Source: a virus
Taxonomy: Duplodnaviria > Heunggongvirae > Uroviricota > Caudoviricetes
Length of the DNA: 47,998 nucleotides
Reading direction: 5' to 3' (one strand)
Virus record (IMG/VR): IMGVR_UViG_2687453188_000002
Made by a program: the position numbers and the translations under genes. Below are positions 4,701 to 10,052 of this stretch, piece by piece. The notes under the pieces are model-generated. The model saw nothing but the letters and a program-made list of their open reading frames with translations, had not been told where the DNA came from and did no database searches. The stretch's first letter is position 1, and the number at the start of each line of letters is the position of its first letter.

Positions 4701-5227
4701 TTGCGTAACTCCGATAACTCGTTAAAACGTTCCATAAACATCCCGTAGGCATGGCCTGGTGACAGTGGAATAACTTTGAACATCTCTGTCGCCGGGATAC
4801 CTTCCAGTACAGGCCAGAAAGAGCCATCATCAAGCCCGAGATCGCGACGTTCGGTTGCCAGCATAATGAGATCGGCATATTTCACTGGCGTGCTCATAAC
4901 AGGAGGTAACCCGTATTTCTCACGGATTACGGCGTCTATTTTTTCTTCCATCCGTTTATAGTCAGGAAGAAGGCGTTTCAGTGGAGCTGGGATGTCCTGG
5001 CAATACGCTTCTGTTGCATCATGCATTAACGCTTCAAAAGCAAATTCCTGCGGCACCAGCTGGCTGCAAAGCACCGCATGTTGGGCGACGCTGTAGAAGT
5101 GAGAAAGATGACCGGCAAAGCGACAGATATTTGAAAGGGAAACCGCGATATCGTTAATAACGATGTCATCTTTATTTATCTTGTCATAATAAAAATGCTT
5201 CCCGGAAAAAGTTTTAATAAATGACAT
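4691..5227 (-). CDS. HD-domain phosphohydrolase (5'-deoxynucleotidase-like)
   Basis: HD motif (ALMHDATEAY) with upstream His residues; start taken at MSFIKTF giving 178 aa, the size I recall for prophage YfdR-type HD hydrolases. Confidence 0.6.
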   Translation of the reverse strand: MSFIKTFSGKHFYYDKINKDDIVINDIAVSLSNICRFAGHLSHFYSVAQHAVLCSQLVPQEFAFEALMHDATEAYCQDIPAPLKRLLPDYKRMEEKIDAVIREKYGLPPVMSTPVKYADLIMLATERRDLGLDDGSFWPVLEGIPATEMFKVIPLSPGHAYGMFMERFNELSELRKCA

Positions 5228-5354: not shown

Positions 5355-6179
5355 TCAGGCGGTGAAAGTACCAATAAAGGTTTCTACTTTGCTGTCTTTG
5401 AATTTCTCAACAAGCAGATCACGAAATTCGTTAGCCATATCTTCCTGCACCGCTTCCAGCTGAATAATGCGCAGAACCAGTACAGGGCGATCACCAGTGA
5501 TAATGCTGAGGCGTAATTTAAACGGACGTTCTTTCAGGCCTTCAAACGGAACGCATTTAAACTCAAATGCTACTGGCATAATGTCTTTGGTTTTCGCTTC
5601 GACAGACTCCATCAAAGAGCGTTTGCCGCTGAAGTCATTATCTTCAAAATCAGCGGTCTGGTTTGCTTCAATCGTGATTTTACGGACTGCCGCAGCCGCT
5701 TTTGTTGCCTTAATAGCGTCACCATTAGCATCAAAGCCCACAAGATAGTCGGCCCAGTCTTCAATCCATTCTGCCAGTGACTTCTGGGAGTTACGCTCGC
5801 CGTTAACAGACAACAGAGCAGAGAACGGTGCTGTCTTTTTCAGTTTGAGTGTGGCGGTGTTATCTGCGTGACCTGGTTCACCAATAGTACCCAGGTTAAG
5901 CACACTGACGGCACGCATATTATCGGCATCGATAAAGCAGCGGGTGCCTTCATCTGCAAGATCTTTAGAATAACGGGTAAAGTCATCGATGCTGGCAGTG
6001 GAAAGCGCACCACGGAAACGGAAGCGATTTAAATTAAATTTTTCCAGATCATGAATGCGGAAATTCTCAGGCAATGCCACAGCATCGGCACCAATCTTAC
6101 TGATAATTTCATTAACACCCTGAGCAGAAATAAGGGCATGGATTTGATTAATTGCGGTTGCGTCTAAGTTCTGAGACAT
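5355..6179 (-). CDS. Conserved prophage protein (YfdQ-like)
   Basis: 274-aa ORF; length and position next to the HD hydrolase match the yfdQ-yfdR pairing in CPS-53-type prophages. Identity is by recollection, not search. Confidence 0.5.
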
Positions 6180-6244: not shown

Positions 6245-6607
6245 TTAATGACCTGCTGCGCGGAGTTTTCCGTCAGGTTCACCGGCAAGAGTCAGTAATT
6301 GTCCCTGGTCTTCCTGCAGAATAGTCAGGCGACCACCTCGATTGACATACATCGGCGTTTCGGTGGTGTCTTCTTCGGAGATTTTCCCGCGGTTAGTCGG
6401 GCGAACATATGAGAGTTTGTGTTTGATTTTCACACGGTTCTCATCAAACGGTTCGATGTCCAGATTGACCGAGACTTTACCTTTGTTTTTCGTGTTCATC
6501 ACACCGGAAGCGACTTCACTGAGAACTGCGCCGAGTTTGGTTTCAAATACGCCGCCGTCCAGTTCTACGATAAATACCTGCACATCAGTACTGCGTACGC
6601 TAGCCAT
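6245..6607 (-). CDS. Hypothetical early protein (YfdP-like by position)
   Basis: Start taken at internal ATG (MASVRSTDVQ...) giving 120 aa. The longer 197-aa frame upstream has a low-complexity Cys/Arg-rich extension that looks non-coding. Confidence 0.45.
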   Translation of the reverse strand: MASVRSTDVQVFIVELDGGVFETKLGAVLSEVASGVMNTKNKGKVSVNLDIEPFDENRVKIKHKLSYVRPTNRGKISEEDTTETPMYVNRGGRLTILQEDQGQLLTLAGEPDGKLRAAGH

Positions 6608-7205
6608 TTTGCTGCTCCTCATCATACCGACCCTGCAAGGTCGGTTGGTTTCTCCACAAAACAGAGAAGAACACCTGCGGTGACAGCCGCCCGGATGGAT
6701 TGGGTTATGAGCCCGTCGTCCGGTGATGCTCTTCTCTGTTTTGTAAAAAGAGCGGTACCAGCCGGAAGCAAGGGTACAAACTGGTACCGCCAAAGCAGTG
6801 GCTGTTGTGGTGGGGTTGTCACTCAGGCGTATGGTCAACCTGACAATCCGGTGTCCTCAACGGGGAAAGAGTAACCCCGCCATACTTACCGCCGCGCCAT
6901 TTCGCGGATTACCACAACGCTGAGAGCACTTAGCCAGTTACGGCACCACACTTTGTCGCGGTTCCATAAATGCCCTCATCGTTGCACCCTGGTCTCTTCC
7001 CAGGCGTCAAACCGGATCGCCACGCTGGTTAGGCGTCTTATCAGCATCATCATTGACTTGCACATTCCGGCTACCTGGTTTGTTTGCCCGAGCAAGGAGT
7101 GGATTGTCCCCTTTAACGTCACCAGACCGCTAACGACGCATGTGCCATACGCCGTGTTACAACCAAATTTTGTTAGTACCTTGTTTGTATGTCTGGAAAG
7201 AAAGA

Positions 7206-7244
7206 TAAAATGAAGTTGCGCATTATGCAAGTGTTTTTATTGCG
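7206..7244. promoter_or_regulatory. Putative left operator/promoter (OL/PL): two TTGC-N7-GCAA palindromes
   Basis: ttgcgcattatgcaa (7206-7220) and ttgcgagatatgcaa (7230-7244), centres about 24 bp apart, just downstream of the cI 3' end and upstream of the leftward operon. The same palindrome recurs in the cI-cro intergenic region. Confidence 0.5.
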
Positions 7245-7309
7245 AGATATGCAATTTGGTGGGTAATGAAAAGCCACCTTCTGGTGGCTAATTGATGTTG
7301 AGGTAGGGG

Positions 7310-8002
7310 TTAATTGTGTCGCTTAAGGGTTTGTGACTGACTGATTAAGACCTTTCCAAAGACCATAAACCGATGTTCGTTTTCGCTGGTAATTCCCCAT
7401 TCGCGGTAAATCTGATTATCAGAAATTACCAGCAGTTTATCAGGTATCATTTGCAGTCGTTTGACGTAAATTTTATCATCAAAACCAAATACATATATAC
7501 CATCCCCATCAAACTGATTGATACTGATATCAACGAAGATGAGATCTCCTGGCTCAATGGTTGGACACATACTGTCCCCACGAACGTTGATAACTTTAAT
7601 GTGATTGGCTGGCCGTCCGCCAAACATCGATACAGCATTATCAGTTCTGTATTCAATGGCATGAATCACATCAATGACATCACCGCCCTGGATAAGGCCA
7701 TTTCCCGCACTGGCACTGACATCCAGCATTTCAATACGGAATACATCCTTCACCTGCGCAACATCCTCACCAATACTGTTTTTACATACAGTATTACTTT
7801 TGACGTCTGAGGTAAAGAGATCAGCGATATCAACACCTAAGCTCCTGGCAATATTACTCAGGGCTTGTTCAGTGAATTGTTTCTGCTTACCTGTTTCCAG
7901 GCGTGAGATATTCGCCGCATCCACTCCTATTGCTTCAGCGAGATCGGCGATTTTCATGTTCTTCGCCTGGCGAAGTTGTCTGACTCGGTTTCCTATGTTC
8001 AT
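7310..8002 (-). CDS. cI: CI-type repressor (HTH plus LexA-like S24 peptidase domain)
   Basis: 230 aa. N-terminal XRE-type HTH (VRQLRQAKNMKIADLAEAIGVDAANISRLETG) and C-terminal S24 signature (GDSMCPTIEPGDLIFVD ... KRL), divergent from cro. Confidence 0.85.
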   Translation of the reverse strand: MNIGNRVRQLRQAKNMKIADLAEAIGVDAANISRLETGKQKQFTEQALSNIARSLGVDIADLFTSDVKSNTVCKNSIGEDVAQVKDVFRIEMLDVSASAGNGLIQGGDVIDVIHAIEYRTDNAVSMFGGRPANHIKVINVRGDSMCPTIEPGDLIFVDISINQFDGDGIYVFGFDDKIYVKRLQMIPDKLLVISDNQIYREWGITSENEHRFMVFGKVLISQSQTLKRHN

Positions 8003-8099
8003 GCGTTTATTACATTTCTTTATTGCGCGTTAAGCAAATCAACTTGCGCAAAATATTTGCGTGAAATAATATGCTCATCACGCAATATGTGGAGGTTAT
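8003..8099. promoter_or_regulatory. Putative OR/PR/PRM immunity control region
   Basis: 97-bp divergent intergenic region. Perfect TTGC-N7-GCAA site at 8023-8037, palindromic ttgcgcaa at 8045-8052, near-match aTGC-N7-GCAA at 8071-8085, and GGAGG Shine-Dalgarno at 8091-8095 before the cro ATG. Confidence 0.6.
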
Positions 8100-8360
8100 A
8101 TGCAATCACCATTACGGAATGTGCGTAAGGCGCACGGATTTACTTTGCAGCATGTTGCTGCGGGCGTTCAGGTCAATCCAGCGACGCTGAGTCGTATTGA
8201 AAGACTGGAACAAATTCCATCTATCGATCTTGCAGAACGTCTGGCCAATTTTTTTAAGGGTGAAATCAGCGAAATGCAGATTCTTTATCCGGCACGTTTT
8301 CAATCTAGCCAAAACCAGAATGGGTTTAAACCACAGGAACAGGAGGTAAGCCGTGGGTAA
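8100..8360 (+). CDS. cro: Cro-like HTH regulator
   Basis: 86-aa ORF with HTH (HGFTLQHVAAGVQVNPATLSRIER) transcribed divergently from cI. Confidence 0.7.
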   Translation: MQSPLRNVRKAHGFTLQHVAAGVQVNPATLSRIERLEQIPSIDLAERLANFFKGEISEMQILYPARFQSSQNQNGFKPQEQEVSRG

Positions 8361-8910
8361 TCATCACTGGAAAGTGGAAAAACAGCCTGAGTGGTACGTG
8401 AAAGCTGTCAGAAAAACTATCGCGGCGTTGCCGGGGGGTTACGCTGAAGCTGCTGAGTGGCTGGATGTAACAGAGAACGCATTATTCAACCGCCTTCGTG
8501 CAGATGGCGATCAGATTTTCCCGCTGGGATGGGCAATGGTTTTACAGCGTGCGGCTGGCACTCACTACATTGCGGATGCTGTCGCACAGTCTGCTGGTGG
8601 GGTGTTCGTATCGCTTCCTGAAATTGAGGCAGTAGAGAACGCCGATATAAACCAGCGCCTGCTGGAAGTCATTGAACAGATCGGCAGTTATTCCAGACAG
8701 ATTCGTTCAGCAATCGAAGACGGTGTAGTGGAACCGCATGAGAAGACAGCAATTAACGACGAACTGTATCTTTCAATTTCGAAGCTCCAGGAGCATGCAG
8801 CACTGGTCTACAAAATCTTCTGCGCTCCAGAAAAGAGTAACGCCCGCGAGTGTGCAGCTCCGGGCGTCGTGGCGTCGATTGCTTCTGGTTGTGGAGAAAC
8901 TAACGCATGA
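8353..8910 (+). CDS. CII-like phage regulatory protein (CII/YdaT-type)
   Basis: 185-aa ORF right after cro with a GTG start behind an AGGAGG Shine-Dalgarno. Position is that of cII; family assigned by position and general resemblance only. Confidence 0.45.
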   Translation: MGNHHWKVEKQPEWYVKAVRKTIAALPGGYAEAAEWLDVTENALFNRLRADGDQIFPLGWAMVLQRAAGTHYIADAVAQSAGGVFVSLPEIEAVENADINQRLLEVIEQIGSYSRQIRSAIEDGVVEPHEKTAINDELYLSISKLQEHAALVYKIFCAPEKSNARECAAPGVVASIASGCGETNA

Positions 8911-10052
8911 ATAGTTTAACGGCAAATAACCGTTTGTCGCAACAGCTGGTGGTCAGCGTCGCTGAACACCTGTTGTTACGGCATGAATGCAGATTACCAA
9001 ATCACCTGGCTGTAAGTAACCACAGAGAACTTTACCTGACTGTGGGGGGCGAGTTGTGCAGGAACTTAACCGCTGGTTTCGTGACGGAAGAGGGCTTTAT
9101 GTCCATGTTATTCGTTGGGAGCCAGAAACACAGCGCGTTATCTATCTTCGCAAAGACTACCCGCATGAGTGCTTTAGTCCTTTGTGGAAATTCAGGCGTG
9201 ATTTTGTTGAGTGTGAAGGACCACCAGCATATTGATTCTGCAATTCCGGGACGTTACACTGTTCAGGCACCTTATAAAGCGGGTGCCGGGATTGGCGTCC
9301 TGAAATTCGCACATGCGCATAACCGCGCTTCAGCGGTTTTTTTGCGCACGTTTCCTCACATCCAAATTATGGTGGGGCGTGCAGGGGCATCGAAAGATGC
9401 GCCGGGGTCATGTGCGACCGGTTACGCCAACCCTGTACGTCTCACCACCTCTGTGATTGGCGTCCCATGTGGTGAGTTTTCAAAATTCGCACATGAGGAT
9501 GTCACTATGGCAACCACCCCTACCCAAACTCACCCTAAAATTGATGTTATCCATGGGAAGGCTGTTACCTCTTCTTTGGCCGTTGCCGAATATTTCTGCA
9601 AGCAGCACAAAAACGTTATTCAAAAAATCCAGACGCTTGAGTGCTCTGTTGAATTCACTGAGCTGAATTTTCAGCCCAGTGATTACACCGATTGCACAGG
9701 CCGCAAACTCCCTTGTTACCAAATCACCCGCGACGGTTTTGCGTTTCTTGCCATGGGCTTCACGGGGAAACGTGCTGCCCGGTTCAAAGAGGCATACATC
9801 AATGCCTTTAACCAGATGGAGAAACAGCTTTCAAATCCCTCTGTACTGAGCGACGTTGCACATAACGCCAGCGTTCTCTATTCCTACATTTCATCAATTC
9901 ATCAGGTCTGGCTGCAGCAGCTTTATCCCATGTTGGCAAAAGCCGAATCCCCGCTGGCTGTAAGTCTGTATGACCGCATCAACGACGCGGCGCTACTGGC
10001 CAGTCTCATAAATTTGTCGCTGAACCCTTCAGAGGTAAGGGGGCGCAAATGA
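8907..10052 (+). CDS. ORF with C-terminal Rha-type phage regulatory domain; N-terminal 200 aa of doubtful coding status
   Basis: ATG at 8907 overlaps the cII stop (ATGA). Residues from MATTPTQTHPKIDVIHGKAVTSSLAVAEYFCKQHKNVIQKIQTL (from about 9507) look like a Rha domain. The upstream part is low-complexity, contains direct repeats and a terminator-like hairpin, so the real Rha gene may start near 9507. Confidence 0.45.
   Translation: MNSLTANNRLSQQLVVSVAEHLLLRHECRLPNHLAVSNHRELYLTVGGELCRNLTAGFVTEEGFMSMLFVGSQKHSALSIFAKTTRMSALVLCGNSGVILLSVKDHQHIDSAIPGRYTVQAPYKAGAGIGVLKFAHAHNRASAVFLRTFPHIQIMVGRAGASKDAPGSCATGYANPVRLTTSVIGVPCGEFSKFAHEDVTMATTPTQTHPKIDVIHGKAVTSSLAVAEYFCKQHKNVIQKIQTLECSVEFTELNFQPSDYTDCTGRKLPCYQITRDGFAFLAMGFTGKRAARFKEAYINAFNQMEKQLSNPSVLSDVAHNASVLYSYISSIHQVWLQQLYPMLAKAESPLAVSLYDRINDAALLASLINLSLNPSEVRGRK
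9323..9343 (+). terminator. Possible short intrinsic terminator inside the 8907-10052 ORF
   Basis: ccgc-gcttca-gcgg followed by a run of 7 T. The stem is only 4 bp, so this is weak. Confidence 0.25.

Follow-up and report, generated by a model that had tools for sequence, protein, structure and literature searches.

Lambda encodes N directly downstream of its early promoter PL, whereas phages of the HK022 type use cis-acting put RNA instead. Which of these, if either, occupies the corresponding position in the very common Escherichia coli lambdoid prophages of the mEp460/cdtI/SfV type? We analysed the leftward early leader of such a prophage in the IMG/VR virus record IMGVR_UViG_2687453188_000002 (47,998 nt), which over its whole length will be referred to as the window. 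The leader (6608-7205) lies between putative OL/PL operators and the first convincing leftward gene, and its RNA corresponds to the minus strand of the window. A preliminary description made from the sequence alone had found it poor in open reading frames (ORFs) where an N gene would be expected, and had suggested a structured RNA, possibly a put-like antitermination element, a riboregulator or a processed small RNA (sRNA). Positions 6608-7260 are 100% identical to a stretch of the FORC_069 chromosome. Among 5,426 complete E. coli genomes, 1,029 contain at least 80% of the leader and 4,768 contain parts of it. With a probability of roughly 0.55, we read it as an sRNA-generating, terminator-gated untranslated leader of a PL-type early-left operon. 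Its core unit (6929 to ~6745, minus strand) consists of a boxA-like motif, a clamped pseudoknotted domain and an intrinsic terminator.

Absence of Credible ORFs in the Leader

Six-frame translation of the leader yielded only short or start-less frames, in agreement with the preliminary description, and the two frames of 84 and 86 amino acids (aa) that it had considered implausible showed neither a PHROG match nor homologues. The RefSeq annotation of the identical FORC_069 chromosome contains no feature across the leader. An N-like protein was not found in the leader by frame analysis and PHROG search. In the other carriers none is encoded between the repressor gene and the element, and no small basic ORF was seen in or after the leader. 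The lack of an ORF and of an N-like protein, here and in the other carriers, supports an untranslated leader.

One frame of 66 aa (6622-6822, minus strand) matched phrog_33599 (E = 6e-18). In the window this frame has neither a Shine-Dalgarno (SD) sequence nor an ATG, its reading frame diverges downstream among relatives, and comparison with Erwinia gave 1 synonymous to 4 non-synonymous differences by our own count. Since start signals are missing, the frame is not kept and the substitutions are biased towards non-synonymous changes, the conservation across this region is, as read from the sequences, at the RNA level. Protein coding in the leader was rejected on the basis of PHROG search and frame analysis. 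In F1055 and four other relatives, the terminator hairpin downstream of the domain is much larger. Its loop contains an SD together with a start codon, AUG or GUG, from which a mini-ORF 'MF(Y/C)R...' begins and crosses the 3′ arm and the U tract; the frames are not kept beyond, and the mini-ORF is missing from the window. One or more overlooked small protein genes would be suggested by this start in relatives and by the phrog_33599 match, but are extremely improbable in view of the properties of the 66-aa frame, the retention of base pairing despite mostly non-synonymous substitutions, and the lack of homologues for the 84- and 86-aa frames.

Structure and Covariation of the Core Domain

Covariance analysis placed a structured RNA domain of ~100 nt, referred to as type-1, at 6804-6918 (minus strand), pseudoknotted and enclosed by an 8-bp clamp. 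The clamp, helix A, pairs 6918-6911 with 6811-6804. It encloses hairpin B (CCGCG-AAAUGG-CGCGG, 6907-6903/6896-6892), helix C (6891-6888/6852-6849), which carries the variable hairpin E (6878-6875/6865-6862), and helix F (6848-6841/6821-6814). Between the 19-nt loop of helix F and the internal loop of helix C, pseudoknot D (6885-6880/6834-6829) is tentatively assigned. The model scored 144.8 bits at 6924-6795 (minus strand), and with filters off this was the sole copy in the 48-kb window, no second one being found in the rightward operon after PR.

Homologues were gathered from phage records, IMG/VR and one genome per species. They were obtained from Escherichia, Shigella, Salmonella, Citrobacter, Trabulsiella, Serratia symbiotica, Erwinia tracheiphila, Izhakiella and P1/P7-like phage-plasmids. 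An alignment of 32 representative sequences was examined for covariation at 35 pairs, and 93.6% of the cells were paired. Changes on both sides occurred in 14 of the 35 pairs, compared to 6.0 ± 1.5 after shuffling and at most 5 in slid controls. Compensatory changes affected six of the eight pairs of helix F, in which Izhakiella carries GGGUAACCA/UGGUUACCC instead of the GGGUUGUCA/UGACAACCC found elsewhere, and four of the eight pairs of helix A. Helices C and D each showed one compensatory pair, originating from P7 and P1, respectively; hairpin B showed none. Conserved secondary structure among homologous prophages, on which the preliminary description had made its proposal depend, was present.

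Hairpin E varies in sequence and length, yet folds in 30 of the 32 variants with a loop that stays CU-rich. In almost all variants this loop (6866-6874, minus strand) is rich in C and U (UUAYUCYUU, CUUCCUU, GACUCCUU, UCCUCC); judged by its sequence it resembles an anti-Shine-Dalgarno, and pairing with ribosome-binding sites (RBSs) might be seeded there. Many unpaired bases are invariant, in particular CAGGUUGACCAU.CGC.U.AG in the loop of helix F.

The domain is followed by an intrinsic terminator (6743-6791, minus strand), recognised as an inverted repeat and by folding, which consists of GGCGGUACCAG, a 19-nt loop and CUGGUACCGC followed by UCUUUUU. Its stem is a perfect 10-bp inverted repeat (6752-6761/6781-6790). 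This terminator was absent from the preliminary description, and with it read-through becomes the main issue for the function of the locus. A terminator-like hairpin with a U run lies 75-157 nt after the anchor in 109 of 110 unique type-1 contexts, and in all lambdoid carriers examined the domain is in sense orientation in the early-left operon.

Relation to the DicF Precursor and to P1/P7

The domain shares 91.7-93.5% identity with the DNA that directly precedes dicF in Qin copies of the K-12 type; this DNA forms the 5′ part of the 190-nt DicF precursor. In Qin, a 190-nt DicF species with an RNase III-dependent 5′ end and a 53-nt form dependent on RNase E have been reported (PMC10448788). In that paper (Ragunathan et al. 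2023), the longer precursor is credited to Faubladier et al. 1990. Counting back 190 nt in Qin placed the 5′ end approximately 5 nt before helix A by our own count. In both lambdoid elements, that of the window and Qin, a domain of ~105 nt in the early-left operon immediately precedes a 3′ part that ends in a terminator, as would be expected for a relative of the long DicF precursor. They differ in this 3′ part, which in the window is an unrelated terminator hairpin (6791-6743) at the position held by DicF in Qin, and in the genes ydfABC upstream and dicB downstream of the domain in Qin, both of which the window lacks. Consistently, the DicF covariance model RF00039 found nothing in 6400-7400 at E ≤ 10 and nothing in the window at its gathering score. 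A folded 5′ domain is not described in the DicF literature searched; older papers may hold an earlier account.

P1 and P7 contain DNA 75-80% identical to the domain. It begins ~35 nt beyond the start predicted for the C1-repressed promoter Pban; a terminator comes next, and tRNAs and ban lie further on. The P1 match (locus 2501-2594) coincides in part with an annotated 'dicF-like region' (locus 2553-2654; AF234173), an annotation based on sequence similarity only, without structure or function. These copies are a source of the compensatory changes in helices C, D and F; unlike the window, they have neither a clear helix A nor a boxA-like motif.

A riboswitch-like attenuator, in which a ligand-binding domain decides on terminator formation, would also be compatible with a compact pseudoknotted fold whose unpaired bases are invariant and with the terminator that follows it. 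The downstream parts argue against it, since the terminators and spacers that follow the domain are unrelated (DicF, window, P1 and large F1055 types; 75-157 nt) and do not allow the domain a conserved alternative pairing. We rejected the riboswitch on account of these unrelated expression platforms and consider it highly improbable.

Exchange of the Domain and the Position of sRNA-17

The mEp460 leader is 98-100% identical to that of the window except exactly between the strands of helix A, where it carries another sequence of ~115 nt, referred to as type-2, without similarity to type-1 (alignment columns 360-486). From this locus an RNA has been mapped: sRNA-17 of E. coli K1 RS218, which carries a prophage of the mEp460 type, was found to be 193 nt by 5′/3′ rapid amplification of cDNA ends (RACE), supported by northern analysis (Front Microbiol 2020, PMC7719688). 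We placed sRNA-17 on the mEp460 and window leaders via the primer sequences of Table S2. The primers start at CGTTGTGG (CGTTGTGGTGAATGCGC..., helix A strand) and finish at the same terminator as that of the window. The RNA therefore has, within a near-identical leader, the same closing-helix 5′ start (CGUUGUGG) and the same 3′ end (GGCGGUACCAG...CUGGUACCGC) as the unit in the window. Its body differs, being a type-2 cassette unrelated to the type-1 domain. Because the primer ends map onto the window leader, the window equivalent would extend from ~6919 to ~6745 and measure ~175 nt, compared to 193 nt for sRNA-17. Among the options of the preliminary description, the processed small RNA consequently fits best, on the strength of DicF-precursor homology and the sRNA-17 locus; the ends assigned to it are placed by analogy.

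The 250 nt upstream of sRNA-17 were taken by the authors as an ArcA-controlled promoter (PMC7719688). This fragment corresponds to module 1 of the leader (6991-7168), a conserved RNA module that P1 also has. What was published as a 'promoter' would accordingly be a piece of conserved RNA, and sRNA-17 may therefore be processed from the PL transcript. Deletion of the cassette in RS218, with the terminator kept, raised yfdP from 0.5 to 47 reads (~96-fold) and yfdR from 0 to 8.5 (PMC7719688). Either read-through from the replacement marker or a cassette that lowers downstream expression would explain this rise.

Type-2 elements are defined by two arms, GTTGTGGTGAATGCGCAGGCTGATGCGC ... AAGCCGGAGATCAGCRCCGGCCACCACAAC. 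These form two invariant hairpins, are 90-100% identical across very different phages and have complementary loops (GCUGAU with AUCAGC). The type-1 covariance model recognised only the clamp in them. In mEp460 (locus 2796-2945) the element lies in the early-left leader, in HK620 (locus 1501-1590) between qut and the late terminator tQ, in the T1-like phage HC6 beside tRNA-Ile, and in the Ackermannviridae phage Magnus directly after a tRNA-like T-arm (GGTTCGATTCC) that is unannotated and was not called by ARAGORN. Further copies were found in phage ep3 and in phages of Klebsiella, Aeromonas, Stenotrophomonas and Pseudomonas, so that temperate as well as virulent phages of many Gammaproteobacteria are represented; a 25-mer of type-2 has more than 120 exact matches in IMG/VR. 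The inserts between the arms are hypervariable (12-180 nt, 39 different ones in 40 unique copies), the whole elements measuring 62-228 nt. In a second count of 41 unique copies, a terminator-like hairpin followed 32 and a boxA-like motif of the GCTCT type, mostly (C)AGTGCTCTTTCC, preceded 23. No relevant Rfam 15 match was obtained for the mEp460 leader or the type-2 loci, whether at gathering score or at E ≤ 10.

The exchange with type-2 bears on the question whether the domain is an RNA-only processive antiterminator, an analogue of put that binds elongating RNA polymerase and lets it pass 6791-6743 and later terminators. The put RNA is an element of ~70 nt with two stem-loops, present after both PL and PR, and its read-through is protein-independent and blocked by mutations in the zinc-binding domain of rpoC. 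Both HK022 and the window prophage are N-less and lambdoid, with a cis RNA placed after PL and ahead of the first terminators. The invariant loop nucleotides, the constant sense orientation in repressor-controlled early operons (lambdoid PL; P1/P7 Pban), the intrinsic terminator downstream and the absence of an N-like protein would all agree with such an antiterminator. Membership in the put family, as the preliminary description had envisaged, did not hold up: with its five helices and pseudoknot the domain differs from the two-stem-loop fold, it is present in a single copy with none after PR, and its covariance model gave no match at HK022 putL (locus ~4313-4235) or putR (locus ~5470-5540) at E ≤ 10. 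Homology to put was rejected on the basis of this model and of sequence comparison. The sole similarity is a 9-mer, GCGCGGCGG (6892-6900, minus strand), which also occurs in putL stem II and includes residues reported important for put activity; its chance expectation is ~3% by our own estimate. As a shared piece of putL stem II it would count for an analogue. A functional analogue of put is unlikely. Type-2 replaces the domain and is also found where an RNA antiterminator is not needed, namely downstream of qut in HK620, where Q supplies antitermination, and in virulent T1-like phages and Ackermannviridae. The exchange with type-2 speaks for a domain that is cargo rather than an antiterminator. 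In addition, Qin makes abundant terminated transcripts, and the increase of yfdP and yfdR after deletion of type-2 in RS218 is unlike what a cassette required for read-through would give, with the reservation that the marker promoter may confound this result.

These arrangements lead us to a tentative suggestion, to which we give a limited though real chance: type-1 and type-2 may belong to a large and so far undescribed class of phage 'RNA cassettes', in which a boxA-like loading motif precedes a GUUGUGG/CCACAAC clamp that is cut to free the RNA. The contents would be interchangeable, either the type-1 pseudoknot domain or the type-2 kissing hairpins with their hypervariable insert. If so, phages would share a portable chassis for the expression and processing of sRNAs, modelled on rRNA maturation, and the variable inserts could be programmable guides or decoys.

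Another RNA of the window resembles these cassettes in its architecture. STnc100 (140 bits) was detected at 18802-18992 (plus strand), after three tRNA genes (18474-18722). STnc100/PasD (RF02076; bioRxiv 10.64898/2026.05.13.724894) represents leader-embedded phage sRNAs, as the cassette in the window would. Its outline is that of the leader cassettes, with GCAUGGUG...CACCAUGC as outer clamp, then a linker (AAU) and a GC hairpin, and CCGGG in the terminal hairpin. Unlike these it is situated in the late region after tRNAs, and with no covariance-model match between it and the leader, the likeness is architectural only.

The boxA-like Motif

Immediately 5′ of the closing helix lies the boxA-like motif GUGCUCUCAGC (6919-6929, minus strand), just upstream of the position equivalent to the RACE-mapped 5′ end of sRNA-17. 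Motifs of the form (C)AGTGCTCT(T/C)T(C)C precede GTTGTGG in many independent phage contexts. Compared with the boxA consensus GYTCTTTAANA (PMC5725501), the window motif GCTCTCAGCGT fits at positions 1-5 only, while the version of relatives and type-2 contexts, GCTCTTTCC, fits at positions 1-7.

The motif might be part of a module like that of the rrn operons, recruiting NusB/NusE and Nus factors, which would keep Rho away from the 600-nt untranslated leader and retain the 5′ strand of helix A while the opposite strand is still to be synthesised, after which RNase III would excise the enclosed RNA in the manner of 16S rRNA. Such a module may coexist with the sRNA-generating leader proposed above. 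It is favoured by the observation that, in many phage contexts unrelated to one another, (C)AGTGCTCTTTCC adjoins the GU-rich GTTGTGG strand on its 5′ side, which recalls the order of boxA and boxC in rrn, and by the 5′ end of sRNA-17 just past the motif. Moreover, long untranslated RNAs need protection from Rho, as has been demonstrated for CRISPR arrays (PMC7665894). The incomplete fit of the window motif speaks against it; its C at position 6 is a position changed in the suhB double mutant C4T/T6C, which lost boxA function. The Qin type (GTGCGCTTCC) and P1 have no good boxA match, and just 23 of the 41 type-2 copies are preceded by the motif. Furthermore, complexes of Nus factors with boxA are known to act on Rho-dependent, not on intrinsic, terminators. 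We therefore hold the rrn-like module to be conceivable yet doubtful.

In lambda and P22, a nut site consists of boxA, a spacer and the boxB hairpin. The boxA-like motif, an 11-nt spacer and hairpin B, with its 5 GC-rich bp and purine-rich loop, could be taken for a nut-type site serving an N-like protein that has escaped recognition. Neither the window nor the carriers yielded a match to an N-family protein, the first gene product is acidic and a small basic ORF is lacking, the carriers have no protein in common upstream of the domain, and the covarying fold is far larger than a nut site requires. This makes a nut-type site very improbable.

Proposed Pathway and Points against It

In the sRNA-generating leader, transcripts started at PL after derepression, together with the few made in lysogens, would fold the domain co-transcriptionally, and most polymerases would halt at the terminator 6791-6743. 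The 5′ side would then be trimmed at the clamp base by RNase III and/or RNase E, as in the Qin DicF precursor, giving a stable sRNA of ~175 nt that could act in trans. The terminator would double as an attenuator that holds yfdP-yfdQ-yfdR silent, and the read-through fraction would be processed at a 20-bp duplex ahead of the first RBS. Anatomy, conservation and covariation of the leader, its homology and its positional identity with mapped RNAs are observed, and it is the processing enzymes, the action in trans and the attenuator role that we infer.

Several points weigh against this interpretation. The 5′ and 3′ ends of the RNA of the window variant are placed by analogy. Taken by itself the domain is of ordinary thermodynamic stability (z = −0.38; −1.5 when the terminator is included), and as it folds no better than shuffled sequences, the case for the core domain rests on its relatives. 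Pseudoknot D is backed by a single compensatory lineage (P1) and by wobble intermediates; a targeted search for more compensation in D found only single mutants in cryptic copies of the Qin type, one of them giving a wobble and two giving mismatches. The strong conservation of loop bases suggests a specific macromolecular partner, which a simple base-pairing sRNA would not need. Finally, a terminator before every early-left gene demands a mechanism of read-through, and the proposed pathway supplies none.

Further Modules of the Leader

A structured leader, as had been suggested, was found in the form of a chain of conserved folded modules in 6608-7205. Folding of the whole leader compared to shuffled sequences gave z = −5.6, a value dominated by the terminator and the long hairpin. 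Upstream of the core unit, module 1 (6991-7168, minus strand) comprises ~180 conserved, non-coding nt with a predicted long-range closing helix and internal hairpins. Relatives with this type of leader show 98-100% identity to it, Citrobacter 88%, and the P1/P7-like segment between tRNA-Ile and ban 79% (P1 locus 4772-4956); there the homologue follows tRNA-Ile directly. The RNAalifold consensus contained five pairs with double-sided changes, and module 1 had no match in Rfam.

Downstream of the core unit, a long hairpin (6656-6744, minus strand) has a 20-bp stem (6744-6725/6675-6656) and a variable interior. It corresponds to the long-range inverted repeat of the preliminary description, which proved to be real, its arms (6656-6680 and 6720-6744) forming 15 perfect pairs, or 20 with G-U pairs. 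F1055, Serratia and Erwinia keep the stem by compensatory changes, with interior length and frames varying, and because relatives maintain the pairing in this way, the repeat is more than chance. By its predicted fold, it would resemble a duplex of the RNase III type when present in transcripts that have read through. Close to the first gene follow a small hairpin (6645-6626), the SD GAGGAG (6620-6615) and the ATG at 6607 (hairpin and RBS, 6608-6645, minus strand); relatives carry a different hairpin at this RBS-proximal position. An Rfam scan, which had been proposed as a check, assigned no family, Rfam 15 yielding only chance-level matches (E ≥ 2) in 6400-7400. A match to hammerhead-II (6606-6656) reached 15.5 bits against a gathering score of 37 and was dismissed as chance.

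Genomic Setting

Gene calling and PHROG search identified a cI-like repressor gene (7310-8002, minus strand) and a cro-like gene (8100-8360, plus strand); a CII-like gene occupies 8353-8910. OL-type operators of the pattern TTGC-N7-GCAA were found at 7216-7230 and 7240-7254, overlapping the presumed PL, and a palindrome of the same type at OR (8023-8037) matches this pair; the pattern search gave six matches in the window compared to 1.9 expected. A candidate for PL, with a −35 TTGCAT (7230-7225), a spacing of 17 nt and a −10 TATCTT (7207-7202, minus strand), was read by eye and was not among the promoters listed by a consensus promoter scan, so that the transcript start near 7195 is only presumed. 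The first convincing leftward gene (start 6607, minus strand) encodes a YfdP-like acidic protein of 120 aa without assigned function (phrog_204, E = 2.5e-48) and is followed by yfdQ and then yfdR.

A GC-rich hairpin of 7 bp, flanked on either side by T runs (7272-7289), closely follows the cI-like gene; this bidirectional terminator-like element sets cI apart from the PL operators. In the rightward operon, isrK (9267-9343) and the C4 antisense RNA (9365-9452), both on the plus strand and with Rfam scores of 62 and 75 bits, respectively, fall within a mechanically called 381-aa 'Rha family' ORF (8907-10052). This position indicates a P1 immI-like RNA module in the rightward operon, and the real antirepressor start probably lies further downstream than the ORF start at 8907.

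Conclusions

Three items were known beforehand: the DicF precursor in its long form, the annotation of a 'dicF-like' region in P1, and sRNA-17. Apparently new are the model of the folded domain, its phylogenetic spread, the clamp-bounded exchange of cassettes and the link between these three items. Novelty was judged against Rfam 15 and the searchable literature, and a prior description in older papers on put-like RNAs, the P1 genome or DicF is possible. For this RNA, which Rfam does not contain, the analysis offers a model of the secondary structure, pseudoknot included, that can be tested. How N-less lambdoid phages pass a strong terminator located before all early-left genes becomes a concrete question. 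For a very common E. coli prophage family the analysis offers an explanation of what occupies the position of the 'missing N gene', and it joins the DicF precursor, the P1 'dicF-like' annotation and sRNA-17 in one modular RNA architecture.

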